DNA of 11,813 bases from a virus (lineage: Duplodnaviria > Heunggongvirae > Uroviricota > Caudoviricetes): IMG/VR virus record IMGVR_UViG_2663763428_000005; one strand, 5' to 3'. Below, piece by piece: positions 111 through 11,813 of the stretch. Each line of letters opens with the position of its first letter. The first letter of the stretch is position 1. Under the pieces are notes generated by a model. That model searched no databases. It saw only the letters and a list, made by a program, of their open reading frames with translations, and was not told the origin of the DNA. The position numbers were made by a program, and so were the translations under genes.

Positions 111-1088
111 TTAATTTTCTTCAGTTTTTTTATTTTTTCTTGCAGGAAGTTTAGGCTTATATGCATTAACAAAAAGTTGATATGAATCCTGTAATGATAA
201 TCCGGGAAGGGTATCGTTTTTGGCACTAAATATTGCATAATACTTTTCGTATCGACTTATATCTTTTTCAAACACCCATGTCCATTCAGAATCATATAGT
301 CTTTCCCCTCCTTTTTCCTTATTTTTGTTCTCAACTGTACGATTAATTATAAATTTGAAAACGGTATTATTCAAAGTTCTAATAAAATTCTCAACAATAA
401 ATGCGATTTGCTCGAGATCATCATTATTGAGTATTATCGGTTTTTCTAAGTGCTTCATATGTTCAGCCAATCCTAGTCGGATTGCATTTTTCGAACCCAA
501 CTTACCAAATCGATGAACACAACAATGCCTTAACTCGCAAACTTTCATGAATTCGCTTGAGCATTTCATCATTTCGATTGGTCGTTGTCCTTTCATTCCA
601 ATAATGTCCTTTAATGTTTCAAAAACATTATAAGGGCTTGCCAATGAAAAGTCCTCAAGTAAAGCTTCTGGTAATAACTCCTTTTTATGGTGTTGTGCCG
701 CTGCATAACTAACGGCCTTATCAGAAACTATAGACTGTATATATTCATCATGATTAATTAGATTTCTGATAAGAGCTCGCAAATAACTTTCGGCTGCAGA
801 CACATAACCTAATAACAACAGATGGCTTAATGTGTTTGAAATATCACCAGATCTTAACAAGTGAAGTTGCTTTGTATTAGCTATAAAAAGATCTAACGGG
901 GATTCCTTGCTATCAACAGGTAACTCATTAAATTTTTTGTGTGTCTCAAACGAAAAAACTAGAGCTGGATTACTACATAGTTCAAAAAACTCTCTTCCAT
1001 CTAAGTTATCATGGGTTGCAGTGACAACTGAGGACGCCACATTATGATGAGTGGTCTCTTCATAATCCTCTTTTGATTCTAGTTCCAT
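111..1088 (-). CDS. Hypothetical protein, third gene of the MTase-ATPase operon; possible HEPN-like or other nuclease effector (speculative)
   Basis: Long minus-strand ORF (track 111..1214, which opens on a TTG). In-frame ATGs at 1181, 1148 and 1088; 1088 (MELESKEDYEE...) is chosen because it has a purine-rich stretch upstream and a hydrophilic N-terminus, but the start is uncertain. The ORF overlaps or abuts the upstream ATPase stop at 1159. Contains 'ELRHCCVHRFGK', which fits the HEPN Rx4-6H signature; this short motif can occur by chance. Stop TAA at 111-113. Confidence 0.55.
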   Translation of the reverse strand: MELESKEDYEETTHHNVASSVVTATHDNLDGREFFELCSNPALVFSFETHKKFNELPVDSKESPLDLFIANTKQLHLLRSGDISNTLSHLLLLGYVSAAESYLRALIRNLINHDEYIQSIVSDKAVSYAAAQHHKKELLPEALLEDFSLASPYNVFETLKDIIGMKGQRPIEMMKCSSEFMKVCELRHCCVHRFGKLGSKNAIRLGLAEHMKHLEKPIILNNDDLEQIAFIVENFIRTLNNTVFKFIINRTVENKNKEKGGERLYDSEWTWVFEKDISRYEKYYAIFSAKNDTLPGLSLQDSYQLFVNAYKPKLPARKNKKTEEN

Positions 1089-1158
1089 TTTCCCGACTCT
1101 TTTTAAATTAAACTTTTCAGATAAGAAAGACACGATTGACAAGTACATGCCATCAAAA

Positions 1159-2865
1159 TTAAGACAAAAACTCTTCAACATGTAATAACACTTTGTCCAT
1201 AATTTTATTGGCAATTTTGGGTCCTATTCTGTGAATTTTTCTTAACTCACTCCCAGGGTCTTGTAAAGACAATACATCTCCTATAGTTTTTACTTTTTCC
1301 AGCCCAGATAGTTTTTGCATTTGCCAAGATGTTAGATGTGGTACTTTTGACAGTGGAATAGACATGCACTGATTATAGGCCGACTCATCAATCAATTGAT
1401 TCCCACAATGATGGCAAAATTTTTGATTGTCAGTCAATCGCGGAGTCTTGCAGTTATTGCATGGAGGTAAAGTTAGTTTAAGTCTCGCAAGTTGCTCAGC
1501 ATTGAATAATGATGAAATGTTTCTTCTGACAGGATGCTTAGCATTCTTTCTTAGTATTTTTTGAATAATCTGAGAAGGAGAAAAACCTCTACTTCCTTCG
1601 TTAAACACTCTTTCCTTTATTAATAAAGCATAATGAGGTATATATCTTTCATAAGTACGCCCATCACCATGAGAAATATCAGGAAGATTATAAAAAAGCC
1701 CTGTTTCAATTAATAGCTTAGTGAGTCGAGAAAAATAAACATTATCATTTTTCTCTATACCGATTATGACTTGTTTCTCTTCTTTATATTGGGAGTTACT
1801 TTCCTTGAGTAATTCGACTACTTTTAATAAAAGTGATTCACCTAATGAAACAATGTCAAACAATCGAGGTAGCTTATCTTTTAGTGAACTGTATTCGCTG
1901 AGTCTAAGCTCAACATACCTTTCAATTATTTTATTAAATTTTTGCTGAGTTGTCTGACTTAAAGTTGTTTGATAATCTCTTAACATCATCAAAAAAGAAC
2001 GTGGAATACCAAATGCTGAGAATTTAAATAACTCTTTCAAGTCATCCGGAATGCCATCATACCCAGGAAACCTTGCCTGCGCTATAGCATCCATCACTGA
2101 GGAATAATTAGGGTGCTGTACCGAAATCCAAGCATCAATTGTTTCAGCATCATGAGCAACATGAAACCTTGGGCCATATTCGGTTGTTCCAGGATAAACC
2201 GATGCCTTTAAAGCTATTTTTGAGGTTTTTAGACTACGTACAATATCAAAAAACTCGTAAAGATATTCAGGAGTTAAGCTTATTGCTGCATCGTCTAATA
2301 AAATAATGACTCTTTTACGTTCAAGCCAATCACATAGTGAACTCAACGAGGATATAACAGAAGAAACACTGATCAATTGAACAATGTTTTCTTGTTCTAA
2401 TGATGGCGAAAGACCCTGCTCAAGCCTTACGATTAAATTAATTAGGAACTCTTTATCCGCTATGAGTATCGTTGACAAATCAAGATATTCAGAATCTTCA
2501 ATATCGCAAGCAATTTCATAAGCAGAGAGTAGTATCTTTGCTAATACCCATTTATGAAAGAGATCAATTGCATTTGGTTTATTTTTTAAAAGCGGCTCTA
2601 ACTTAAAATATTTATTAAAAGAAACATAGAGTGGTAATGGTGCGTTATCATCGTTTTTACATTCAACCCAAGCATAACGCATCAAATGTGTTTTACCACA
2701 TCCCCTAGGACCAACTATAAGTTTGATGCCTGGGGATATAAGAGCATTATGTATAATATCGAAAAACTCTCCAGTTCTGATAGTATTATTTTTTATCGTA
2801 TCCTCATCAATATAATCAGCTCGTTCCTCGATAAGAAAATTACTATCTAATTCCACATCAGTCAT
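1159..2865 (-). CDS. P-loop NTPase (AAA+/ORC-Cdc6-like) with C-terminal CxxC...CxxC zinc ribbon and helix-hairpin-helix-like tail
   Basis: 568-aa ORF. Walker A 'GPRGCGKTH' near the N-terminus, Walker B 'VIILLDDA', C-terminal 'CNNCKTPRLTDNQKFCHHCG' (four-Cys zinc ribbon), then a Gly-rich 'RIGPKIANKI' segment typical of HhH DNA-binding motifs. ATG at 2865 overlaps the MTase stop (2858-2860) by 8 nt, indicating translational coupling. Confidence 0.85.
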   Translation of the reverse strand: MTDVELDSNFLIEERADYIDEDTIKNNTIRTGEFFDIIHNALISPGIKLIVGPRGCGKTHLMRYAWVECKNDDNAPLPLYVSFNKYFKLEPLLKNKPNAIDLFHKWVLAKILLSAYEIACDIEDSEYLDLSTILIADKEFLINLIVRLEQGLSPSLEQENIVQLISVSSVISSLSSLCDWLERKRVIILLDDAAISLTPEYLYEFFDIVRSLKTSKIALKASVYPGTTEYGPRFHVAHDAETIDAWISVQHPNYSSVMDAIAQARFPGYDGIPDDLKELFKFSAFGIPRSFLMMLRDYQTTLSQTTQQKFNKIIERYVELRLSEYSSLKDKLPRLFDIVSLGESLLLKVVELLKESNSQYKEEKQVIIGIEKNDNVYFSRLTKLLIETGLFYNLPDISHGDGRTYERYIPHYALLIKERVFNEGSRGFSPSQIIQKILRKNAKHPVRRNISSLFNAEQLARLKLTLPPCNNCKTPRLTDNQKFCHHCGNQLIDESAYNQCMSIPLSKVPHLTSWQMQKLSGLEKVKTIGDVLSLQDPGSELRKIHRIGPKIANKIMDKVLLHVEEFLS

Positions 2866-4066
2866 GTTTAATCCTTACAAGATGTATTTTTTTTAATGCA
2901 TCCATTGTAATATGTTGTGCGGCTACACCACTACTCGCTCGAGATAATTCCTCTTGCCCATCTTGAGAACAAAGAAAATCAAATAGTTTTTTCTTATCTC
3001 CACCAGAGGCTCGTATCAGAAAAATACAGTCACTGATATAAGAATAGCCGCTCTCAACAAACAATATTTTTTTATGAAAATTTCGCCCAACTCTTGCTAT
3101 TAATATATCACCAGGCTTAGCAATGACATCTAATTTTGATGGCTTCAATTCTTCTACAGAGTTGCAGTGGAATTTAATGTACTTTTCATCACCACTAAAT
3201 TTTGTCGTATGAAAAACATGTTCCGTAATTTCCTTTGAATTAAACCTACCTCTAAAAATTGAAATATTTTTAAGCATCCCTATTGTGCTAAACCCTTTAC
3301 CTTCATTTTTATTATAATGATAAGAGTAGTCCATTCTCTCAACCGCATCTTCTTTTCTAATTAAAACAGAAGGCGACAATTCCCCATCTTTAGTTATACA
3401 ATGTAATTGTATTTTATGATGAGGCATAATTTTTTTATTAAAAATTAAAATATGTGTTTTAGCCTCTGTCCTTTTGAAGATATTCCTAGGCAATTCAATG
3501 ACTTTTGTAATTGAATGTTCATTCAATAAATATCGTCTTAAACCTATAAACTTTCTTGCTGTAAATATACCATCAGGTAAAATTATTCCAGCCTCACCGC
3601 CCTTTTTAAGAAACCTGATGACTTGAGATATAAATATTATCTCTGCTGGGACATATTTTGAGACAGATATATATTTATCTGCGCCAATCTCACTAATGAT
3701 TTTAAAATAATCATCCCTCCATTCAGGGAGAGTGAATGGAGGATTACATACTGCAACATCAAAATTTCCTTGATGTCGGGCAAGCATTTCAGGAAATGAA
3801 TGAACAAGGGCATCTGTTACAATATGAGTAAGATTATCACATACTTTTTTTGACATCCGAGATTCTATATCCAAAGAATATGCTTCTGCATTCTTCCATC
3901 GGTCTAAAGCAGCATAGGTTAAGCTCCCCTCACCAGAAGCTAAATCAATAATATTATTGACTTTTTCAGCTTTCATCTGAGAAACCAATAATGCACTTAT
4001 GGATTCTTTTGTATAGTATCTTCCGAGACTATCTCGTTGTGTGAATGGCATATAGTTACTGTTCAT
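2858..4066 (-). CDS. N6-adenine DNA methyltransferase (gamma-class, TaqI/Eco57I-like catalytic domain plus C-terminal putative target-recognition domain)
   Basis: 402-aa ORF. 'GRYYT' N-terminal motif (as in HsdM/PglX-type MTases), SAM-binding motif I 'DLASGEGS', catalytic motif IV 'NPPF' ('VAVCNPPFTLPEW') about 65 residues later. The roughly 250-aa C-terminal remainder is long enough for a target-recognition domain. First gene of a 3-gene coupled operon. Confidence 0.9.
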   Translation of the reverse strand: MNSNYMPFTQRDSLGRYYTKESISALLVSQMKAEKVNNIIDLASGEGSLTYAALDRWKNAEAYSLDIESRMSKKVCDNLTHIVTDALVHSFPEMLARHQGNFDVAVCNPPFTLPEWRDDYFKIISEIGADKYISVSKYVPAEIIFISQVIRFLKKGGEAGIILPDGIFTARKFIGLRRYLLNEHSITKVIELPRNIFKRTEAKTHILIFNKKIMPHHKIQLHCITKDGELSPSVLIRKEDAVERMDYSYHYNKNEGKGFSTIGMLKNISIFRGRFNSKEITEHVFHTTKFSGDEKYIKFHCNSVEELKPSKLDVIAKPGDILIARVGRNFHKKILFVESGYSYISDCIFLIRASGGDKKKLFDFLCSQDGQEELSRASSGVAAQHITMDALKKIHLVRIKHD

Positions 4067-4307
4067 TTTTTATACTCATCTTAAGTACGCTACCGCCCTA
4101 GGCGTTACGGCTACCCAAGAACCAACACAATCATGTAATCTATTGATATTTATAAACTTATCTTCAAATCTTTCAGCCCTAGAACCTAAAAAAGATAGAA
4201 GTGTAGGTAACAAAGGGCGATCGGATATAGGGCTAATGTTTAAACTTAAGTATCAAAATATACGGTTTTAGGTCATTTTCCTAATCAATCCTATCATCAC
4301 GTCAAAT

Positions 4308-5516
4308 CTACTTTGTAGCGTTCACCAGCAAAGAAATACATGAATTATGATTAGCGTTTATATAGTCCGCATACCACTGCATCATCTCCCTACGTCCTTC
4401 CAAATACAACGCATGGTTATACGTCCCACGAATCGCATTTTTATCAACGTGAGCCAGCTGGGTTTCAATCCACGCTGTATTGAAACCTTCCTCATGCAAA
4501 ATCGTACTCATCGTGTGACGGAAACCATGCCCCGTTACCCTCCCCGTATATCCAATCCGCTTAAAAACCTGATTAATACTCGCTTCACTCATCGTCTTGC
4601 GGGGATCATTACGTCCCGGGAACACCAGTGGATATTGCCCTGACATCACTTTGAGTTGCTGTACGATTTCCAGCGCTTGGGTAGAGAGGGGGACAAGGTG
4701 AGGCCGTTTCATCTTCATACGCTCGGCAGGTATCTCCCACACCGCTTTTTCAAGATCAAACTCACTCCAGAAAGCACCTCGGAGTTCGCCAGTGCGAACT
4801 CCCGTGAGGATCAGCAGACGTGCCGCAAGAACAACTAACGGGCTTCCTGTGTAGCCTGCGAGAGCTTTAAAAAAGTCTGGTAACTCCTCAACAGTAAGGA
4901 AGGGATAATGCTTCGATTCATGCCCTGACATCGCGCTGGTAAGATCCGCTGCAGGATTGTATTCCGCACGACCGGTTACGATGGCGTAACGAAAGACTTC
5001 GCTGCAACGCTGGCGAACCTTCTTGGCCTTCTCTGTCGCGCCACGGCTTTCAATTCGACGCAGCACATTAAGCAGAACCAGCGGTTTGATTTCATTCACC
5101 GGTTGTTGGCCAATATAGGGAAAAATATCTTTATTAAAGGCTTCGATAATGTCCGAGGCATAACCTTCTGACCATCGGCTCACCTTCGTTCCATGCCATT
5201 CAAGTGCCACAGCCTGAAACGTATTATTTAGCTGCACATCTCGAACCAGCTTTTCTTCTTTCTTGGCAAGCGATGGATCGATACCTTCGGCAAGCTTTTT
5301 CTTGGCGTCGTCACGCAGTGCCCTCGCTTGTGCAAGGGACACTGCCGGATAGACACCAAAGGCCATACGCTTCTCTTTTCCATTGAAGCGATATTTCATC
5401 CGCCAGTATCTGGAACCAGAGGGAACAACCTCAAGATACAAACCAGCACCATCTGCCAGCTTATAGGCTTTCTCTCTGGGTTTAGCTGCGTCTACCTGTC
5501 GCGCATTAAGTTTCAT
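4308..5516 (-). CDS. int: Tyrosine site-specific recombinase, P4-type (tRNA-targeting) integrase
   Basis: N-terminus 'MKLNARQVDAAKPREKAYKLADGAGLYLEV...' is the canonical P4-like integrase arm-binding region. C-terminal catalytic residues are in 'HGFRHTMST' and '...GTYNHALYLEGRREMMQWYADYI' (R...HxxR...Y). ATG at 5516 has an AGGGAG Shine-Dalgarno upstream; the ORF track extends to 5555 with alternative upstream starts. Lies 164 bp downstream of a tRNA 3'-end repeat in the same orientation. Confidence 0.92.
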   Translation of the reverse strand: MKLNARQVDAAKPREKAYKLADGAGLYLEVVPSGSRYWRMKYRFNGKEKRMAFGVYPAVSLAQARALRDDAKKKLAEGIDPSLAKKEEKLVRDVQLNNTFQAVALEWHGTKVSRWSEGYASDIIEAFNKDIFPYIGQQPVNEIKPLVLLNVLRRIESRGATEKAKKVRQRCSEVFRYAIVTGRAEYNPAADLTSAMSGHESKHYPFLTVEELPDFFKALAGYTGSPLVVLAARLLILTGVRTGELRGAFWSEFDLEKAVWEIPAERMKMKRPHLVPLSTQALEIVQQLKVMSGQYPLVFPGRNDPRKTMSEASINQVFKRIGYTGRVTGHGFRHTMSTILHEEGFNTAWIETQLAHVDKNAIRGTYNHALYLEGRREMMQWYADYINANHNSCISLLVNATK

Positions 5517-5574
5517 TGGGGGCATCTCCCTAGACCGAACACAAAATGCCCCCACTTATGCCCCCAACTGCGAC

Positions 5575-5658
5575 TTGATTTCGGTTGAGTCTAGTTGATA
5601 ACAGGAGATAAGATACGGGCCAGAAACCGCAGTATACGAGCTTTTAGTTGATTTCGGT
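5575..5658. repeat. Direct repeats between tRNA repeat and int start; putative integrase arm-type or regulatory sites
   Basis: Exact 11-mer 'TTGATTTCGGT' at 5575-5585 and 5648-5658; 'AGTTGAT' at 5593-5599 and 5646-5652. Located in the int promoter/att region. Confidence 0.4.
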
Positions 5659-5679
5659 AGACTTGGGAAGAGTTTGAAA

Positions 5680-5725
5680 TGGTGCCGATAATAGGAGTCG
5701 AACCTACGACCTTCGCATTACGAAT
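5680..5725 (-). repeat. Partial tRNA-Thr(CGU) 3' end (about 46 nt, anticodon loop to CCA); attachment-site (att) repeat, not an intact tRNA
   Basis: Reverse complement of 5680-5725 reads 'ATTCGTAATGCGAAGGTCGTAGGTTCGACTCCTATTATCGGCACCA', matching the 3' part of enterobacterial tRNA-Thr(CGU) (thrW-type) as remembered. The sequence beyond 5725 does not supply the required 5' acceptor strand 'GCCGATA' or a D-arm, so the tRNA is truncated. Confidence 0.8.
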
Positions 5726-6421
5726 TATAAGAATCCGCTTCTAATTCAAAGTATTACCCCATCAACACTGTGCTCACACGTCCCACCACATCAAAACATG
5801 TAAAGCCTTGCAAGCCATTGTGAGGCCTTATGTGTCTCAGTTTTGTCCCACCTTGTATTATGACTTGCATAGCCAATGAAGATAAACGTGACGACAAACA
5901 GCGCAGCAGTCTTCTTTTCTTTCACACTTTCCCCAATCAGCATACATACTTTCTACCATAACTGTAGTGAATGTCTGTTATGAGCGAGCAAAAGAGATTC
6001 AATTACCGGGGAATTACTCCGACATAAGCTCTCCCAGAAACACCGGAACAGCGATTCGCATATTCTCTTCTATACTTTCAGTCTGACCGGCTGGAGATTT
6101 CATAGCAAGAAAATGGATGAGCCAAGACCTATGCGGGAAAGAGGCTGAGGAAATAATTGCCGATAGCACTGTGCCCGACGAAAAGTTAATCTGGCACGCA
6201 ATGACGCGCGTCCTTGGGGCATCAGGAATCAGAGAGCCAACTTAACAACCCATTATATATTATTTAACCGGACTGTTACATGTACAAAGTTCAATGATTA
6301 GTGATTCTGTGACGCCACATACAACCTAAGCCCCTGATATAAAACCAGTCTATGCAACACCTAAAAATCATATATGATAGGGTGATAAGTCAACGCGCAG
6401 TATAAAAATTAAGCTAAAAAA

Positions 6422-6472
6422 TGCTTTCAGCATAGTGAATCTATTTCACACTACATAATTAAGGATGAAAAA
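6422..6472 (+). promoter_or_regulatory. Putative promoter/operator region of the ParA-like operon
   Basis: AT-rich leader with two small inverted repeats ('TGCT-TTC-AGCA' 6422-6432; 'GTGAA-TCTAT-TTCAC' 6435-6449), a -10-like 'CATAAT' (6454-6459) and an 'AAGGATG' Shine-Dalgarno ahead of the ATG at 6473. Confidence 0.3.
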
Positions 6473-7318
6473 ATGACTGCACCAGTAATTAGTTTTATCA
6501 ATATGAAAGGTGGGGTTGGTAAAACAACTTTATGCGTTGGGATTGCTGAGTTTTTAGCCAACCATATGGGGCGCAAGGTTCTAGTTATCGATATTGATCC
6601 TCAATTTAATGCCACTCAGTCCTTAATGGGGCATTATGATCGAGTAGAAGAATATATGACTGCCCTTCGCCCTAATAATCAAACCATTCGAAAGATTTTT
6701 GAGCTTCCAAATTCATTAATGGAAGATGAAAAGAAAGTGACACCAGAACAGGTCATTACTAAAGTTTCAGACAATCTTGATATTATCTTAGGTGATATAA
6801 ACATTATCTTTGATACTAACCAAGAGGGTATTAGAATAAAAATGTTGCGTAAATTCATCACCGAAAATGACTTAAAAGAAAGTTACGACTATATCTTTAT
6901 CGATAGCCCCCCAACAATCTCATTATTTACAGATACCGCACTCCTTGCTTCTGATTATTATCTTACTCCGGTTAAAATTGATCACTACTCGGTGCTTGGA
7001 GCAAGCAGTTTAAATAGCGTTATAAGAAATATGCGCACACATCATGAGAAAGAAATCAAGCAAGTCGGTTACATTTATACAAACACTGATGCTGAAATGA
7101 CCAATAAAACAAGGGAAATTAAAGAACAATTCGAAAACCATACTCAATTTACAAATTTTTATTTCTTTGAAAATCAATTAACCTACGTGCGTGATTTAAT
7201 GGTAGGTTATCAAGGAAATATTCCTTCTTGTTATTCAAAGTCACGCCAAGATATAGAAAAGATCTGTAACGAATTTATTAACAGAGTGGCTCACTTGGAA
7301 GGTAACACAAATGAATAA
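6473..7318 (+). CDS. ParA/MinD-family (deviant Walker A) ATPase
   Basis: 281-aa ORF. Deviant Walker A 'NMKGGVGKTT', 'VIDIDPQ' motif, Walker B-like 'IFIDSPP'. Good Shine-Dalgarno. Stop overlaps the next gene's start (ATGAATAA). Confidence 0.88.
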   Translation: MTAPVISFINMKGGVGKTTLCVGIAEFLANHMGRKVLVIDIDPQFNATQSLMGHYDRVEEYMTALRPNNQTIRKIFELPNSLMEDEKKVTPEQVITKVSDNLDIILGDINIIFDTNQEGIRIKMLRKFITENDLKESYDYIFIDSPPTISLFTDTALLASDYYLTPVKIDHYSVLGASSLNSVIRNMRTHHEKEIKQVGYIYTNTDAEMTNKTREIKEQFENHTQFTNFYFFENQLTYVRDLMVGYQGNIPSCYSKSRQDIEKICNEFINRVAHLEGNTNE

Positions 7319-7709
7319 ACAATTAATTAAAGCGCTCAATAAAGCTAATAATATGCCCATGACCAAAGAAAACTTCTTAGGCTTGGTAATTATGTTGATT
7401 CTTTCAAAAGAGGTTTTTAGATCAAATTTTGATGTTAGTAAATTTATTAACAAAACCTTCAAAATATCTTTTTTGAATTATGCTGTACGGTCAAGAACTT
7501 TGATGTGCGCTAAAATTTGCAGACATATTAATGAATTAAGTGAGAATGACATAAAGATGGCTTATACGCATTTCTTAAACAACATTAACACATTAGACAT
7601 TATTTTTAATGATGCAAATAAAACAAGCCAAAAACCCACATCTAAAAGCAAGCATGCTATAAGGAATTTAAATATTTGGATTAATGCAAATAAAAAGGAA
7701 GAAGAATAA
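7311..7709 (+). CDS. Hypothetical protein (132 aa), coupled to ParA-like ATPase
   Basis: ATG at 7311 preceded by a 'GGAAGG' Shine-Dalgarno and overlapping the ParA stop; Lys/Asn-rich basic C-terminus. No recognisable domain by eye. Its stop overlaps the next start (TAATG). Confidence 0.6.
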   Translation: MNKQLIKALNKANNMPMTKENFLGLVIMLILSKEVFRSNFDVSKFINKTFKISFLNYAVRSRTLMCAKICRHINELSENDIKMAYTHFLNNINTLDIIFNDANKTSQKPTSKSKHAIRNLNIWINANKKEEE

Positions 7710-8374
7710 TGCTCACGCAGGATCCCTTCAACATTGGAAGAGATGTAAATTATTTTAGAGCGGAGGTGCAAAAGCACCTCAGAACCACTGATGAAATAAA
7801 CAAATCAGTATCAATATTTAGGCAAATAAGTCTTTGTAATACAATTTTAAGTCACAATCCTAATCTAAATCACTCTTCTTATATAAAAGGTTTTATATAT
7901 GATACCTTAAACTCCTTAATTGCCATTATAAAAAAAAGAGAACGGTATCTCCAACTGAACTTCCGCTCAATGGTGGAGCATGTGGCCAGAATAAGCCTCA
8001 ATAAGAACTACAATGGTGGGGATTTTGACCAAACTGTACGTCGTAGAGACTTTGACTTCTTAAAAGCCCAACAAGTCGATGAAGGCTGGTCTTATTTACA
8101 TAATGTCTATATCAACGCCTGTTATTATGTTCACTCCTCCCCCCAAGCGAACCTAAATGTTACATCAACATTTATATCACTTATGGAGGGAGATTGTAAT
8201 TCAACACAGCATAAAATGGTGAAAAAACTTCATGAGGTAGTATCGGCGCTGATGAGAATCATTATAAAGTATTATCATCAGCATATCTCAAACATTTTCT
8301 TTAGAAACAAAAAGGATTTAGAGAAAATAATGGGAAAAAGCCTTTATTCATATTATACCAGCTTAGACAATTAA
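7709..8374 (+). CDS. Hypothetical protein (221 aa), third gene of the ParA-like operon
   Basis: ATG at 7709 preceded by an 'AAGGAAG' Shine-Dalgarno and overlapping the previous stop (TAATG). Contains 'NFRSMVEHVAR' (an Rx4H-type motif of unknown significance). No recognisable domain. Confidence 0.65.
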   Translation: MLTQDPFNIGRDVNYFRAEVQKHLRTTDEINKSVSIFRQISLCNTILSHNPNLNHSSYIKGFIYDTLNSLIAIIKKRERYLQLNFRSMVEHVARISLNKNYNGGDFDQTVRRRDFDFLKAQQVDEGWSYLHNVYINACYYVHSSPQANLNVTSTFISLMEGDCNSTQHKMVKKLHEVVSALMRIIIKYYHQHISNIFFRNKKDLEKIMGKSLYSYYTSLDN

Positions 8375-8439
8375 TTCTCTCATATTCATTGCGTAGAGCA
8401 TAAATATCTATCTAACCACCTAAAATGCCAGAAAATCTA

Positions 8440-9170
8440 GTTGTATACCGGTGCGAAAATATCTCGCGTTTCATCTGCCACTGCTGCTGAATGCCCTGCC
8501 CAGCGAAACAGAGTGTTTCCTTCCCGTCTTTTGCATTGAGGTGCTCCAGCACGCTCATTAACTTTTCGCTCCCAGGACCCAGCGCGTTATCGTCGAATAG
8601 GTTAGGGCATGCTCTGACTGAAGAAGTCCCCCAGCATTACCCCGGCTTTCTGATATCGGTGTCCGTCTTTCCATATTGCATCCAGACTCCCCGTTGCTAC
8701 TGCAATGATATCCCGACTGTCCTGTGTCGGGATGAGCAGCTTCACCGACGCGCTGTTACAGTAGTACGACTCGTTCAACGCAAAGGGTATCGTGTAAAAC
8801 CGATGATGACACTGCCGGCAATCAGCACTGACGTCAGCAAACGTGAGAAAGAACAGATAAGCCGAACGATTTAGGAAATGTTTGAAGAGACTGATATGTG
8901 GATGGTTTCAGTTTAAACGCCTTGAACCGTCATATTACCTAAGTACAATCCGCTGTGACTGGCAATCATTCAATACTTGCACTATCAAAAGTGCATCAGC
9001 CAACCGCAGCACGTCTTGCATACGACCTGTCTGCGGTTTCAATCACCTCTCACCACCAGTCCCATCAATAATAATTAAACAGCGCCTAAACAAAATAAAT
9101 AACAACAAGTCAACAACCTCGACAGGATGCCGATGGGATGATGAAGAGATAAGAAAGAATAACTAGTAAA
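8440..9170. other. GC-richer segment without a convincing gene; possible degraded gene remnant
   Basis: Composition differs from the flanking AT-rich genes. The plus-strand ORFs here (8491..8874, 8882..9166) have odd Cys/Ser/Pro/Arg-rich compositions. On the minus strand, a 48-codon frame runs from an internal Met to a stop near 8420 (MSVLEHLNAKDGKETLCFAGQGIQQQWQMKREIFSHRYTTRFSGILGG); an upstream stop was not located. Confidence 0.25.
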
Positions 9171-9304
9171 GCCCTAAAACGTCAGCGTTCAGACGCGTTT
9201 TTTACTTAACCGGTAACAAATACGTTGTATCATAGCAACATAAAATGATTGTTCTAAATCAGATTAACTCCTCACTTTTGTACAATGTCGCTTACAGGTA
9301 TACC

Positions 9305-11194
9305 ATGAAATCCGAGACGCTAACTGTCCAACAACTTTTTCAAGACCGCCGACAATACTGTGTTCCATTCTATCAACGTGCCTATGTATGGACTCAGCGA
9401 AACCAATGGTCAGCTCTACTGGAGGATATCCTAGAGAAAGCACAATCCCGGCTCTCGGGTACAAAACCAACTCCCCATTTCCTTGGTGCAGTGGTACTGG
9501 AACCTCAACCAAAAAAAGGATTATTCGGTGTAGATTCCATACATATTATTGATGGTCAGCAACGATTGACCACTCTTCAATATGTTCTGGCATCCATCCG
9601 ATTAGCATTACGTGCGACAGATCTTTCCAACTTAGAGCCTCTCATTTCGTCTTGCCTGAAAAACTCAAACGAAGACACAATGCGAAATAAAGAAGTAGAG
9701 CGCTTCAAACTGTGGCCAACTTTTCGGGATCAAACTCATTTTATTCAAAGTTTTAATGTTGAAAATATTGACGATATCCGGAATGTATTCTCTGATAGTT
9801 TCACGCAGCATGGTACGTTGCGTAAGCATTTTAATCACCCGCCATCACTAGAAGCATTATGTTTTTTTACTGAAGCCTTTATAAAGTGGATTAAAATAGA
9901 AAATCACTCACCACGAGAAAATGCTGTAGCATTAATTGAGGCTGTCTTGACGGATCTGAAACTAGTAAGCATATTTCTCGAGGCTGAAGATGACGCTCAA
10001 ATAATTTTTGAAACATTAAATGGCAGAGGTGCGGAACTTCATGCCACAGATCTTATTCGCAATTATATTTTTATGTGCGCTGAACATGAAAATATTAATG
10101 CTGTTGAATTATATGAGAATGAGTGGAAGATCTTTGAAGATACGTACTGGTCAGAAAGACAACGTCGTGGTCGTATTAATAAACCACGCATGGAGTGGCT
10201 AGTGCATGCAACATTGCAATCAGAAAGGCAACGTGAAATCGATCTGTCTCGTCTTTACAATGAGTATCGTGATTATGTAAGTAAGGACTTGCCTTCACAA
10301 CGAGCAGATCTGCAAGTAAAGCGCCTCAAACAATATGCATCACAATATAAAGAATTGGTTGGTGGTTTTGGCACAACCCCCATCTCACACTTTGGACATC
10401 GCATCGCAGCCTATGATGTGACGACACTTTATCCGCTTGCTTTGTTCATTTCGATAGCTAACATCGCCGATGATGAGAAAGCAGCCATGTATAATGATCT
10501 TGTCTCCTACGTAGTACGAAGAGCCGTATGTGGCCTGACGCCAAAGAATTACAACAATGTATTTATGAATGTATTGCGGCACTTGTCTAAAACAGAAATT
10601 TCCAGTGTTGAGTTACGTAATATCCTCAATAGCTTAAATGGCGAAGCCTCACGTTGGCCTGGGGACTCAGAATTTCTCAACGCTTGCATCAATGCTCCAC
10701 TTTATCCTGGCAGGCTCGACGCACCGAAAATGCGCTCAATGTTAACGGAACTTGAAAGAGAACTTTGTCGCCAAGTGAAGACAGAGAAGCCTGATGTTCC
10801 AAATCTTTCTAACCTCGATATCGATCATCTTATGCCTCAAAGTTGGTATTCCTGTTGGCCTCTCGAAAATGGTCATATAGTGACAAATTCAGATGCTACG
10901 GTATTGAACCAAATTGTTCTGTCTGGAACCGATCTTACCCCAGAACAGCTACTGGTAAGGAAACGGCAACAAGCGATAGCTACGTTGGGAAATCTAACTT
11001 TGCTTAACCTTAGCGTAAACCGTTCTGTTCAGAATGCTGTATTTCTGAAAAAACGTGATGCTCTCATCGTCCACACCAATCTACGACTGAACATTCCACT
11101 TATAGTTAAGGATAAATGGGATGAGGATGAAATCCTGGAGCGGGGTAAAAAGTTGGGGGAAATTGCATTGAAAGTATGGCCAAAACACGATTAA
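9305..11194 (+). CDS. GmrSD-like DUF262/DUF1524 protein; putative type IV (modification-dependent) restriction endonuclease or related defence nuclease
   Basis: N-terminal DUF262/ParB-like signatures 'VPFYQRAYVW' and 'IIDGQQRLTTL'. C-terminal DUF1524/His-Me-finger-like 'DIDHLMPQSW' and 'GNLTLLNLSVN'. Start uncertain: ATG at 9245 (longest ORF, no Shine-Dalgarno) or ATG at 9305 (AGG about 9 nt upstream, motif spacing typical for the family). Confidence 0.85.
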   Translation: MKSETLTVQQLFQDRRQYCVPFYQRAYVWTQRNQWSALLEDILEKAQSRLSGTKPTPHFLGAVVLEPQPKKGLFGVDSIHIIDGQQRLTTLQYVLASIRLALRATDLSNLEPLISSCLKNSNEDTMRNKEVERFKLWPTFRDQTHFIQSFNVENIDDIRNVFSDSFTQHGTLRKHFNHPPSLEALCFFTEAFIKWIKIENHSPRENAVALIEAVLTDLKLVSIFLEAEDDAQIIFETLNGRGAELHATDLIRNYIFMCAEHENINAVELYENEWKIFEDTYWSERQRRGRINKPRMEWLVHATLQSERQREIDLSRLYNEYRDYVSKDLPSQRADLQVKRLKQYASQYKELVGGFGTTPISHFGHRIAAYDVTTLYPLALFISIANIADDEKAAMYNDLVSYVVRRAVCGLTPKNYNNVFMNVLRHLSKTEISSVELRNILNSLNGEASRWPGDSEFLNACINAPLYPGRLDAPKMRSMLTELERELCRQVKTEKPDVPNLSNLDIDHLMPQSWYSCWPLENGHIVTNSDATVLNQIVLSGTDLTPEQLLVRKRQQAIATLGNLTLLNLSVNRSVQNAVFLKKRDALIVHTNLRLNIPLIVKDKWDEDEILERGKKLGEIALKVWPKHD

Positions 11195-11215
11195 TGCAAT
11201 TAATAAAATGATTAT

Positions 11216-11241
11216 AGCGGCCTTACATTAGTAAGGCCGCT
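11216..11241 (+). terminator. Stem-loop, probable transcription terminator downstream of the GmrSD-like gene
   Basis: Perfect 11-bp inverted repeat 'AGCGGCCTTAC-ATTA-GTAAGGCCGCT' 22 nt after the stop codon. There is no strong T-tract on the plus strand; the minus-strand flank is T-rich, so it could act bidirectionally. Confidence 0.5.
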
Positions 11242-11446
11242 ACTCACTATTAAATCCTTTAATTTGCAACAAGAACAGCAGTGTCAGCCCTAGGTTTCGG
11301 ACTTTGTACCGCTTATCTTGTCTTCAAAATCAGCTCGCATCCTGCACAGTTCAGCGCATTACGTTGTAGATCTGTGTTCTGGTCATTTGTTGATACGCGA
11401 ACATAGCCAATAAGCATGATAGCTCCTCCTGACAAAAACAGGAACG

Positions 11447-11687
11447 ATGCCATTTGCGCGCTATTTCTGCATTTTCATAAACGTTCAATTGGGAGAAGCG
11501 GCAAAACGGGATGTCGGAACCGGTAATAATCAACTCCCGGACATGTCCGCATTTGGTATGTCGCGAAACGGACAAACTGCCTGGGATATTCTCCCAAATG
11601 GTATGATTCGACAGGTTGGTACTGTGACACTGACGCCTGTTGGTAATTTCAACGCAATTACTCTTGGTGGAGTGCTGTACTACACCC
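11447..11687 (+). pseudogene. ORF truncated by IS insertion (unknown product)
   Basis: The plus-strand ORF 11447..11716 runs straight into the IS terminal repeat; its last 9 codons (TLNRPGNPGD) are encoded by IS sequence, so the native 3' end is missing. Product not recognised. Confidence 0.3.
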
Positions 11688-11813
11688 TGAACCGCCCCGG
11701 GAATCCTGGAGACTAAACTTCCTGAGAAAGAGGTAAACAGGATGACTAAAAATACTCGTTTTTCCCCCGAAGTCCGTCAACGGGCAGTCCGTATGGTTCT
11801 GGAAAGTCAGAGC
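11688..11813 (+). mobile_element. Left end of an IS3-family insertion sequence (IS629/IS1203/IS3411-like), continuing beyond the window
   Basis: Terminal sequence 'TGAACCGCCCCGGGAATCCTGGAGACTAAACTTCCTGAGAAAGAGGTAAACAGG' followed by the ATG of orfA; this matches the left inverted repeat and leader of IS629-group elements as remembered. Confidence 0.75.
11742..11813 (+). CDS. IS3-family transposase OrfA (N-terminal HTH part), partial: runs off the window end
   Basis: ATG at 11742 with a 'GAGAAAGAGG' Shine-Dalgarno. Translation 'MTKNTRFSPEVRQRAVRMVLESQS' is the characteristic N-terminus of IS629/IS1203-type OrfA. Not in the ORF track because no stop lies within the window. Confidence 0.8.
   Translation, partial: MTKNTRFSPEVRQRAVRMVLESQS

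Follow-up and report, generated by a model that had tools for sequence, protein, structure and literature searches.

The locus analyzed here raises the question of why the 3' end of a tRNA gene should stand, without its 5' half, directly upstream of a P4-type integrase gene, and which of the adjoining mobile elements left it there. The junction lies within a DNA stretch of 11,813 nt (the window), which is 100% identical to several E. coli chromosomes, e.g. NZ_CP082129.1 at 3765074-3776886. The features that meet at the junction are as follows.

5726-5847, no strand assigned: non-int arm of an SfIV-type attP, where the prophage "b region" ends, 119/122 identical to SfIV
5680-5725, minus strand: 3' fragment of thrW (46 nt), an exact match to the intact gene, assigned below as the attR core of the prophage
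5517-5679, minus strand: int-proximal (P') arm of the island att site (163 nt), which abuts intact thrW in relatives and in strain M217
4308-5516, minus strand: P4-type tyrosine integrase of 402 aa, with the domains Arm-DNA-bind_3, Phage_int_M and Phage_integrase

Alignment with the intact gene on the same chromosome shows that the fragment corresponds exactly to the part of tRNA-Thr(CGU), thrW, that begins at the anticodon-loop edge (position 31) and ends with the CCA. On the minus strand it reads ATTCGTAATGCGAAGGTCGTAGGTTCGACTCCTATTATCGGCACCA, and the identity to intact thrW spans 48 nt (window 5678-5725, minus strand), the two nucleotides past the CCA being 5678-5679. The position where the 5' half of thrW would be expected holds unrelated sequence in this alignment, ARAGORN found no tRNA genes in the window, and Rfam gave no matches in the window at gathering score, hence no tRNA; by all three approaches the fragment lacks the full cloverleaf of an intact tRNA-Thr. 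The int gene is co-oriented with the fragment, and its ORF starts 163 nt past the CCA end. An earlier, sequence-only reading of the window had described the 3' 46 nt of a tRNA-Thr, co-oriented and upstream of int, with no intact tRNA across it, and this observation proved right in every stated detail.

In NZ_CP082129.1 an intact thrW is located beside proA at 3818520-3818595. It shares the strand of the fragment and lies 47.7 kb to its right. This gene contains the second copy of the 46-mer; within 150 kb around the site there is no third full copy, just a degenerate one of 16 nt. The fragment had been taken for an att repeat derived from tRNA-targeted integration, a reading that depended on a second 46-mer copy in the replicon, and both this copy and the intact tRNA gene were found where predicted. 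A complete lambdoid prophage fills the interval between fragment and thrW, with int and xis at the thrW end. The gene order from thrW is int, an HTH excisionase-like gene, early genes of yfdP-T type, repressor/cro and Q, followed by genes for lysis, terminase, head, tail, J, lom and tail fibre; after the tail fibre come an IS3-disrupted remnant of an invertible segment and then the accessory genes of the right half of the window.

The Int protein of this prophage is 99.5% identical to SfIV Int and ~89% identical to that of P22-like Salmonella phages. The SfIV attP core is the same as window 5680-5725 at all 46 positions, and likewise the same as thrW (46/46). The int-side arm of SfIV matches the DNA beside intact thrW (attL) at 198 of 200 positions, and the left flank of the fragment in the window at just 20 of 60, which is the chance level. 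The core together with the non-int arm occurs as a simple attR beside paoD in another strain, and also within phage phi458. The sequence features expected of such an attR are thus present, i.e. an identical core, the non-int arm as its flank, cognate int-xis and attL with an intact tRNA gene, and an unoccupied site elsewhere. Since the core, non-int arm, attL and Int all match those of SfIV, the segment formed by 5680-5725 and 5726-5847 is, on sequence comparison, the attR of an SfIV-like prophage. The 46-bp attP is identical among phages SfI, SfIV and SfV, which integrate into thrW (PMC3851460), and P22-like phages likewise integrate into this gene (PMC2629481).

The likeness to the attR of SfI, SfIV and SfV at thrW lies in the 46-bp core, the nearly identical SfIV arm and Int, and the location of thrW beside proA. 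In contrast to those phages, the prophage at this locus has a lambda-like, siphovirus-type genome, and its attR abuts another mobile element, whereas that of SfI, SfIV and SfV abuts the native downstream flank of thrW. The DNA behind the arm also differs, with a small membrane protein ORF, ParA and GmrSD here versus gtr genes in SfI, SfIV and SfV.

5791-5943, minus strand: small ORF of 50 aa on the prophage side, homologue of a "putative membrane protein"
5944-11813, no strand assigned: end of the prophage accessory region ("b region"), which continues rightward into tail and head genes

Homologues of the 50-aa ORF adjoin the icd-type attP in phage 21 and lambda-like phages. The accessory region contains a ParA-like ATPase gene, two unknown genes, umuC' and dinI' fragments, GmrSD, a pin fragment and a tail-fibre fragment.

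The left side of the fragment borders on a genomic island whose Int has 44% full-length identity to P4 Int (E = 5e-124). The composition is that of a P4-type att module: a P4 Int homologue with an N-terminal arm-binding domain, encoded downstream of a co-oriented tRNA 3' end. Relatives of this integrase from other Enterobacterales were compared. Those with at least 69% Int identity mostly have a co-oriented intact tRNA-Thr gene upstream, as detected by ARAGORN, with the anticodon CGU except for two with UGU; the spacer is 163 nt in the closest relatives (92-98% identical) and slightly longer in others. Relatives with 58-68% Int identity are mostly found behind tRNA-Arg, tRNA-SeC, tRNA-Phe or tRNA-Gly. 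Two candidates for the identity of the island integrase were rejected: the integrase of PAI III536, as strain 536 has a P22/Sf-type int pointing toward thrW, and that of CP4-6, as K-12 IntF is just 22% identical.

Directly behind int the island carries three cargo genes.

111-4066, minus strand: cargo region with the three genes
2858-4066, minus strand: N6-adenine-type DNA methyltransferase (PADLOC MTase_II, E = 1e-237)
1159-2865, minus strand: ORC/CDC6-like AAA ATPase of 568 aa, with just weak HEC-02A matches
111-1181, minus strand: unknown protein of 356 aa, with no Pfam or PADLOC match

Apart from the methyltransferase, PADLOC recognized no known defence system in this trio. Part of the cargo region is taken up in some strains by a cytosine methyltransferase and a type II endonuclease instead, and this alternative cargo suggests that the region behind int is a swappable defence slot. 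Further left, the island holds IS debris, an acquired lsr operon and genes of the CP4-6/CP4-44 type, namely yagK, yagM, an AlpA-family gene and those for a GTPase, Ag43, YeeR, antirestriction, RadC and YeeU/CbtA. The lsr operon for autoinducer-2 uptake, complete as lsrKRACDBFG and accompanied by a Salmonella-like downstream gene, lies between IS fragments (L001 5553-15088, NZ_CP082129.1) and appears to be horizontally acquired island cargo.

The far end of the island, ~48.5 kb away beside yagP'/paoD, reads TCCTATTATCG-CACCA followed by TTAAAATCAAAGAGTTACCCC, the latter being the native flank downstream of thrW in K-12. The repeat at this end spans just the last ~17-20 nt of thrW, is seen within an IS-rich mosaic island and may belong to an element older than the present int. 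The copy (L003 25195-25210, corresponding to NZ_CP082129.1 ~3722194-3722209) is degenerate, with a 1-nt deletion of an acceptor-stem G. Acceptor-stem "damage" has been reported for attR tRNA fragments of some islands, Thr included (PMC10111431), and the missing G resembles it. The P4-type integrase is presumed to use as its own core about the last 20 nt of thrW.

5680-5699, minus strand: last 20 nt of the fragment, presumed core of the P4-type island integrase

The core of P4 is 20 bp long and ends in CGGCACCA; the presumed island core of ~20 nt of tRNA ends alike.

We are therefore dealing, in all probability, with a hybrid att site, in which the attR of the prophage has been joined to the former attL arm of the P4-type island through two integrations at thrW. 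With two successive integrations, the DNA to the right of 5725 is prophage and the DNA to the left of 5680 is island. The proposal that the repeat parts two tandem elements has thus been borne out, with the P4-type-integrase island on the left and the lambdoid prophage on the right. A partial tRNA beside int is normal in the attP of a free phage or plasmid, and the window was considered as such; this was rejected, the window being chromosomal and its flanks belonging to different elements.

The int-proximal arm of the island has a counterpart in the attP/int module of phage P4, which was reportedly treated by Pierson & Kahn in 1987. The P4 GenBank record (NC_001609) annotates six "attP arm sequence repeats", which are 12-mers of TTGGGGGCAT type, and as far as could be checked this annotation is sequence-based. 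One tandem pair lies between core and int (3942-3965) and another in the opposite arm (4151-4174); of the two single copies, one covers the int start in inverted orientation (3915-3926) and one is located within int. The window has the following equivalents, of which the tandem 12-mers are here called G-boxes and the inverted copy the C-box.

5544-5567, minus strand: tandem 12-mers TTGGGGGCATAA and GTGGGGGCATTT, of GGGGGCAT type, matching the "attP arm sequence repeat" pair of P4
5517-5525, plus strand: inverted arm-repeat copy TGGGGGCAT, between the Shine-Dalgarno sequence and the int ATG, as in P4

The far arm of the island carries GTGGGGGCATAA and AAGGGGGCATTT (L003 ~25270-25293), so that doubled repeats on both arms and an inverted copy at the int start are found as in P4. 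Measured centre to centre, the int-side pair and the 20-nt core are 134 nt apart in P4 as well as in the window, and the distance of the other-arm pair to the core centre is 75 nt in P4 and 78 nt in the island. Another integrase clade has a doubled motif 81 and 132 bp away from the centre of att, which has been proposed to constitute arm sites (PMC10111431). Of 82 upstream regions, from 80 relatives, P4 and the window, 58 contain the G-box pair; it precedes the ATG by 47-51 nt, or by 36 nt in P4, and the variable G-box bases (CAT, TAT, CCT/CTT, CAC) change jointly in the pair and in the inverted copy. By homology with P4, the GGGGGCAT 12-mers and their inverted copy are probable Int arm-type and autoregulatory sites. 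Differences from P4 concern the target (thrW here, leuX in P4), the phased boxes described below (TCWAC here, TCCGN in P4) and the nature of the element, which is a large mosaic island here and a satellite phage in the case of P4.

Between the fragment and the G-boxes there are exactly two copies of the sequence TTGATTTCGGT, at 5575-5585 and 5648-5658. When the 163-nt spacer was shuffled, a direct repeat of an exact 11-mer came up in 0.15% of the shuffles. Among shuffled whole windows, ~32% contain a repeat of this kind within 100 bp, while the real window has two, and since repeats are this common in shuffled windows, the case for function is made by comparative conservation and not by the repeat itself. 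The 11-mer is largely kept in close relatives, whereas in relatives with 58-77% Int identity boxes of the form TC..A(C/G) persist and the 11-mer does not. In a G-box-anchored alignment of 23 non-redundant arms (<85% identical), TC is conserved at -44, -34, -24 and -14 from the first G-box, and these are the sole strongly conserved upstream columns. The boxes form two clusters in the window.

5574-5608, minus strand: cluster B, with TCTCC, TCAAC, TCAAC and TCAAG (tRNA orientation) in 10-bp phase, candidate excisionase (Vis/AlpA-type) sites
5647-5661, minus strand: cluster A, with TCTAC and TCAAC in 10-bp phase, 19-33 nt past the tRNA end, containing one copy of TTGATTTCGGT

Cluster B is located immediately upstream of the arm-repeat pair, and the int-proximal TTGATTTCGGT covers its boxes 3 and 4. 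In a tRNA-end-anchored alignment the boxes of cluster A lie at +19 and +29 from the tRNA end; across both clusters, 23-25 non-redundant arms were covered.

Several direct repeats one helical turn apart in an att arm make up the layout of an operator array for a recombination directionality factor (RDF) of Vis/AlpA/Xis type, and such spacing of direct repeats is a hallmark of RDF operators (PMC7498355). The AlpA-family protein Vis of P4 binds within P4 attP (PMC2603039), and a passage of PMC7286903 that cites work on P4 has Vis repressing the int promoter. An AlpA-family gene sits in the island. From the RDF-type layout, the behaviour of P4 Vis and the presence of this gene, the TCNAC boxes are provisionally assigned as putative binding sites of an island excisionase or regulator of the AlpA/Vis family, an assignment to which we give a little less than an even chance. 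In the least certain step of the scheme, a protein of this family would bind the boxes, bend the arm and repress the int promoter. Literature searches for footprints of P4 Int and Vis yielded secondary mentions only, and a simple sigma-70 scan of the minus strand found no convincing int promoter.

As the main alternative, the boxes could be IHF sites and/or elements of the int promoter instead of excisionase sites. Several of them read AATCAA, which is the core of the IHF consensus WATCAANNNNTTR, the int promoter regions of P4 and PAI I536 hold IHF sites (PMC7286903), and a TATAAT-like hexamer follows cluster A in many relatives. However, inspection by eye revealed no box in the window with a TTR element at the consensus spacing, and four boxes in strict 10-bp register are the pattern of an RDF operator, unlike a single IHF site (PMC7498355). 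We consider this explanation unlikely, if worth keeping in mind, and retain the AlpA/Vis assignment as the working one.

The second G-box and the inverted C-box are predicted to form a 12-bp hairpin around the int Shine-Dalgarno sequence (5495-5575, minus strand; -33.7 kcal/mol, z = -4.0), and the leaders of P4 and of each of the 23 non-redundant relatives are predicted to fold similarly. Such a hairpin may provide additional control or simply follow from the way the sites are arranged, and the conservation of G-box and C-box could be due in part to RNA structure. If carried further, the GGGGGCAT and ATGCCCCC elements would act mainly as an int-leader RNA hairpin that hides the ribosome-binding site, and not as protein-binding DNA. 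The predicted stability, the recurrence of the hairpin in 23/23 relatives and P4, and the covariation of G-box and C-box speak for such a role. It nevertheless seems rather improbable, because the tandem pair is also present in the other arm, both in P4 and at the island far end, with no gene start following there; the first G-box covaries too, yet one hairpin needs one box; and the pairs keep fixed distances from the core (-75/-78 and +134), like the doubled proposed arm sites of PMC10111431. The function as Int arm-type and autoregulatory sites is therefore preferred for these elements. As a separate observation, the relatives L044, L051 and L053 have a fourth, inverted box, with which nested hairpins are predicted.

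The int-proximal att arm of P4-like island integrases may possibly follow one fixed grammar across thrW, argU-type tRNA-Arg, selC, pheV/U and glyU-type targets, a generalization that we put forward with some doubt. With similar reservation, this grammar would consist of two 10-bp-phased TCNAC boxes by the core and four more before the doubled Int repeat at +134. It might also include, just as tentatively, an inverted arm repeat over the int ribosome-binding site that would close an mRNA hairpin. Should the phased boxes prove to be AlpA/Vis operators, hundreds of pathogenicity and defence islands would come under a sequence-level rule from which their att arms, the specificity of their excisionases and the autoregulation of int could be predicted. 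P4-like arm-repeat geometry and phased TCNAC boxes across tRNA targets may be of some use for att-site prediction.

The sequence-only reading had tied the 46-nt repeat to the adjacent P4-type integrase and had offered the TTGATTTCGGT repeats as candidate integrase arm-type sites. The latter idea is not supported. The repeats are real and conserved in the form of TCNAC boxes; however, the 11-mer has no copy in the far arm of the island and does not match the P4 arm repeats, and TTGATTTCGGT thus lacks what distinguishes arm-type sites, i.e. copies on both attP arms and identity with the known repeat of the family. That the neighbouring integrase made the 46-nt repeat and uses TTGATTTCGGT as its arm-type sites is suggested by the co-orientation of the fragment 163 nt upstream of int, and by an 11-mer repeat that is unlikely by chance in the spacer and largely kept in close relatives. 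This explanation is very improbable nonetheless: 46 bp is instead the attP/attB core of SfI, SfIV and SfV, and both this length and the right flank of the fragment match SfIV attP, while the far-end repeat of the island spans just ~17 nt; moreover, the 11-mer is lost in relatives with 58-77% Int identity, and the repeats annotated in P4 are GGGGGCAT 12-mers, present here on both arms with P4 geometry. The 46-nt repeat is thus better ascribed to the SfIV-like prophage, and the arm-type sites of the island integrase to the G-boxes.

The order of the two integrations can be reconstructed by comparison with E. coli M217, in which proA and thrW are followed by 163 nt, the gene for an identical Int protein, and those for the methyltransferase, the ATPase and the hypothetical protein, with no prophage. 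The simplest history has the island arriving first and regenerating thrW at its attL, and the phage arriving second, into the regenerated gene. In the first step, as deduced from structure and relatives, the island with the P4-type integrase would have integrated at the 3' end of thrW, leaving thrW, the 163-nt P' arm, int and cargo on one side and a short direct repeat of the tRNA 3' end beside yagP'/paoD, ~48.5 kb away, on the other. In the second step, which the comparison of the junctions shows, a lambdoid phage with an integrase of SfIV/P22 type and a 46-bp attP core recombined with the regenerated thrW. The int-xis end of the prophage now abuts intact thrW (attL), and at its other end comes the displaced 46-nt copy (attR, 5680-5725), followed by the old P' arm and int of the island. 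An origin of the junction by rearrangement, that is by homologous recombination or inversion between thrW repeats or prophages in place of integrase-mediated phage insertion, is hardly credible, even in a region rich in IS elements and repeats and with K-12 CP4-6 as a case of differently arranged elements at thrW, given that both prophage ends are precise with 46-bp cores matching 46/46, that both attP arms of SfIV recur at these ends, oriented as simple integration would leave them, and that an otherwise identical context without the prophage exists in M217.

Insertion of a phage next to a resident element at thrW has a precedent in SfI, which has been shown experimentally to enter the attL of a resident SfX prophage (PMC3306764). 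The SfI/SfX tandem lysogens have the same order as the locus described here, namely tRNA, newcomer, att repeat and resident element. The resident is a second Sf phage in the SfI/SfX case and a genomic island with a P4-type integrase here, and the elements at our locus, unlike SfI and SfX, have different integrase families and core lengths in the same tRNA 3' end. The same hotspot is occupied in K-12 by CP4-6, where a 49-nt 3' fragment of thrW (ptwF) is kept as the island att repeat; ptwF, however, adjoins the native flank and the divergent, different integrase IntF (22% identical). The K-12 fragment is found at L005 35700-35760 (297.2 kb), and IntF belongs to another subfamily and is oriented away from it. 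The thrW hotspot is used by at least three integrase types.

A search of 5426 complete E. coli genomes found the simple thrW-arm junction in 529, as counted with a synthetic thrW-plus-arm query at a coverage of at least 80%, and the tandem junction in 157, so that ~3% of these genomes have the tandem arrangement. The 47.7-kb SfIV-like prophage and the ~48.5-kb P4-type-integrase island meet precisely at the truncated tRNA, which also reveals the order of acquisition, island and then phage. The setting is that of carbapenem-resistant E. coli lineages, and the main value of the finding lies in correct annotation. Nothing in the two element types, the 46-bp core, the hotspot or the tandem occupation goes beyond what is documented and ordinary; the only mildly new product is the family-wide grammar proposed for the int-proximal arm, which extends a well-studied system.

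Some further observations concern the prophage side of the window. The phage att arm contains two overlapping terminator-like hairpins (5805-5839, plus strand) that fall within the 50-aa ORF on its antisense strand, and their sequence is conserved in SfIV, phi458 and phage 21-like phages. Behind the gene for the ParA-like ATPase come two genes of 132 and 221 aa that overlap each other and have no family match (6473-8374 for all three, plus strand); this trio in the prophage b region is operon-like and ~94% conserved in other E. coli lineages. The accessory region encodes a full-length type IV (modification-dependent) restriction enzyme of the GmrSD family (9305-11194, plus strand), with umuC' and dinI' fragments (~8412-8874) on one side and a truncated pin invertase gene (~11296-11417) on the other. 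Finally, ATGCAAATAAAA is repeated at 7612-7623 and 7684-7695, 72 nt apart at the end of the 132-aa gene, and is, besides TTGATTTCGGT, the only exact local direct repeat of at least 11 nt in the window.
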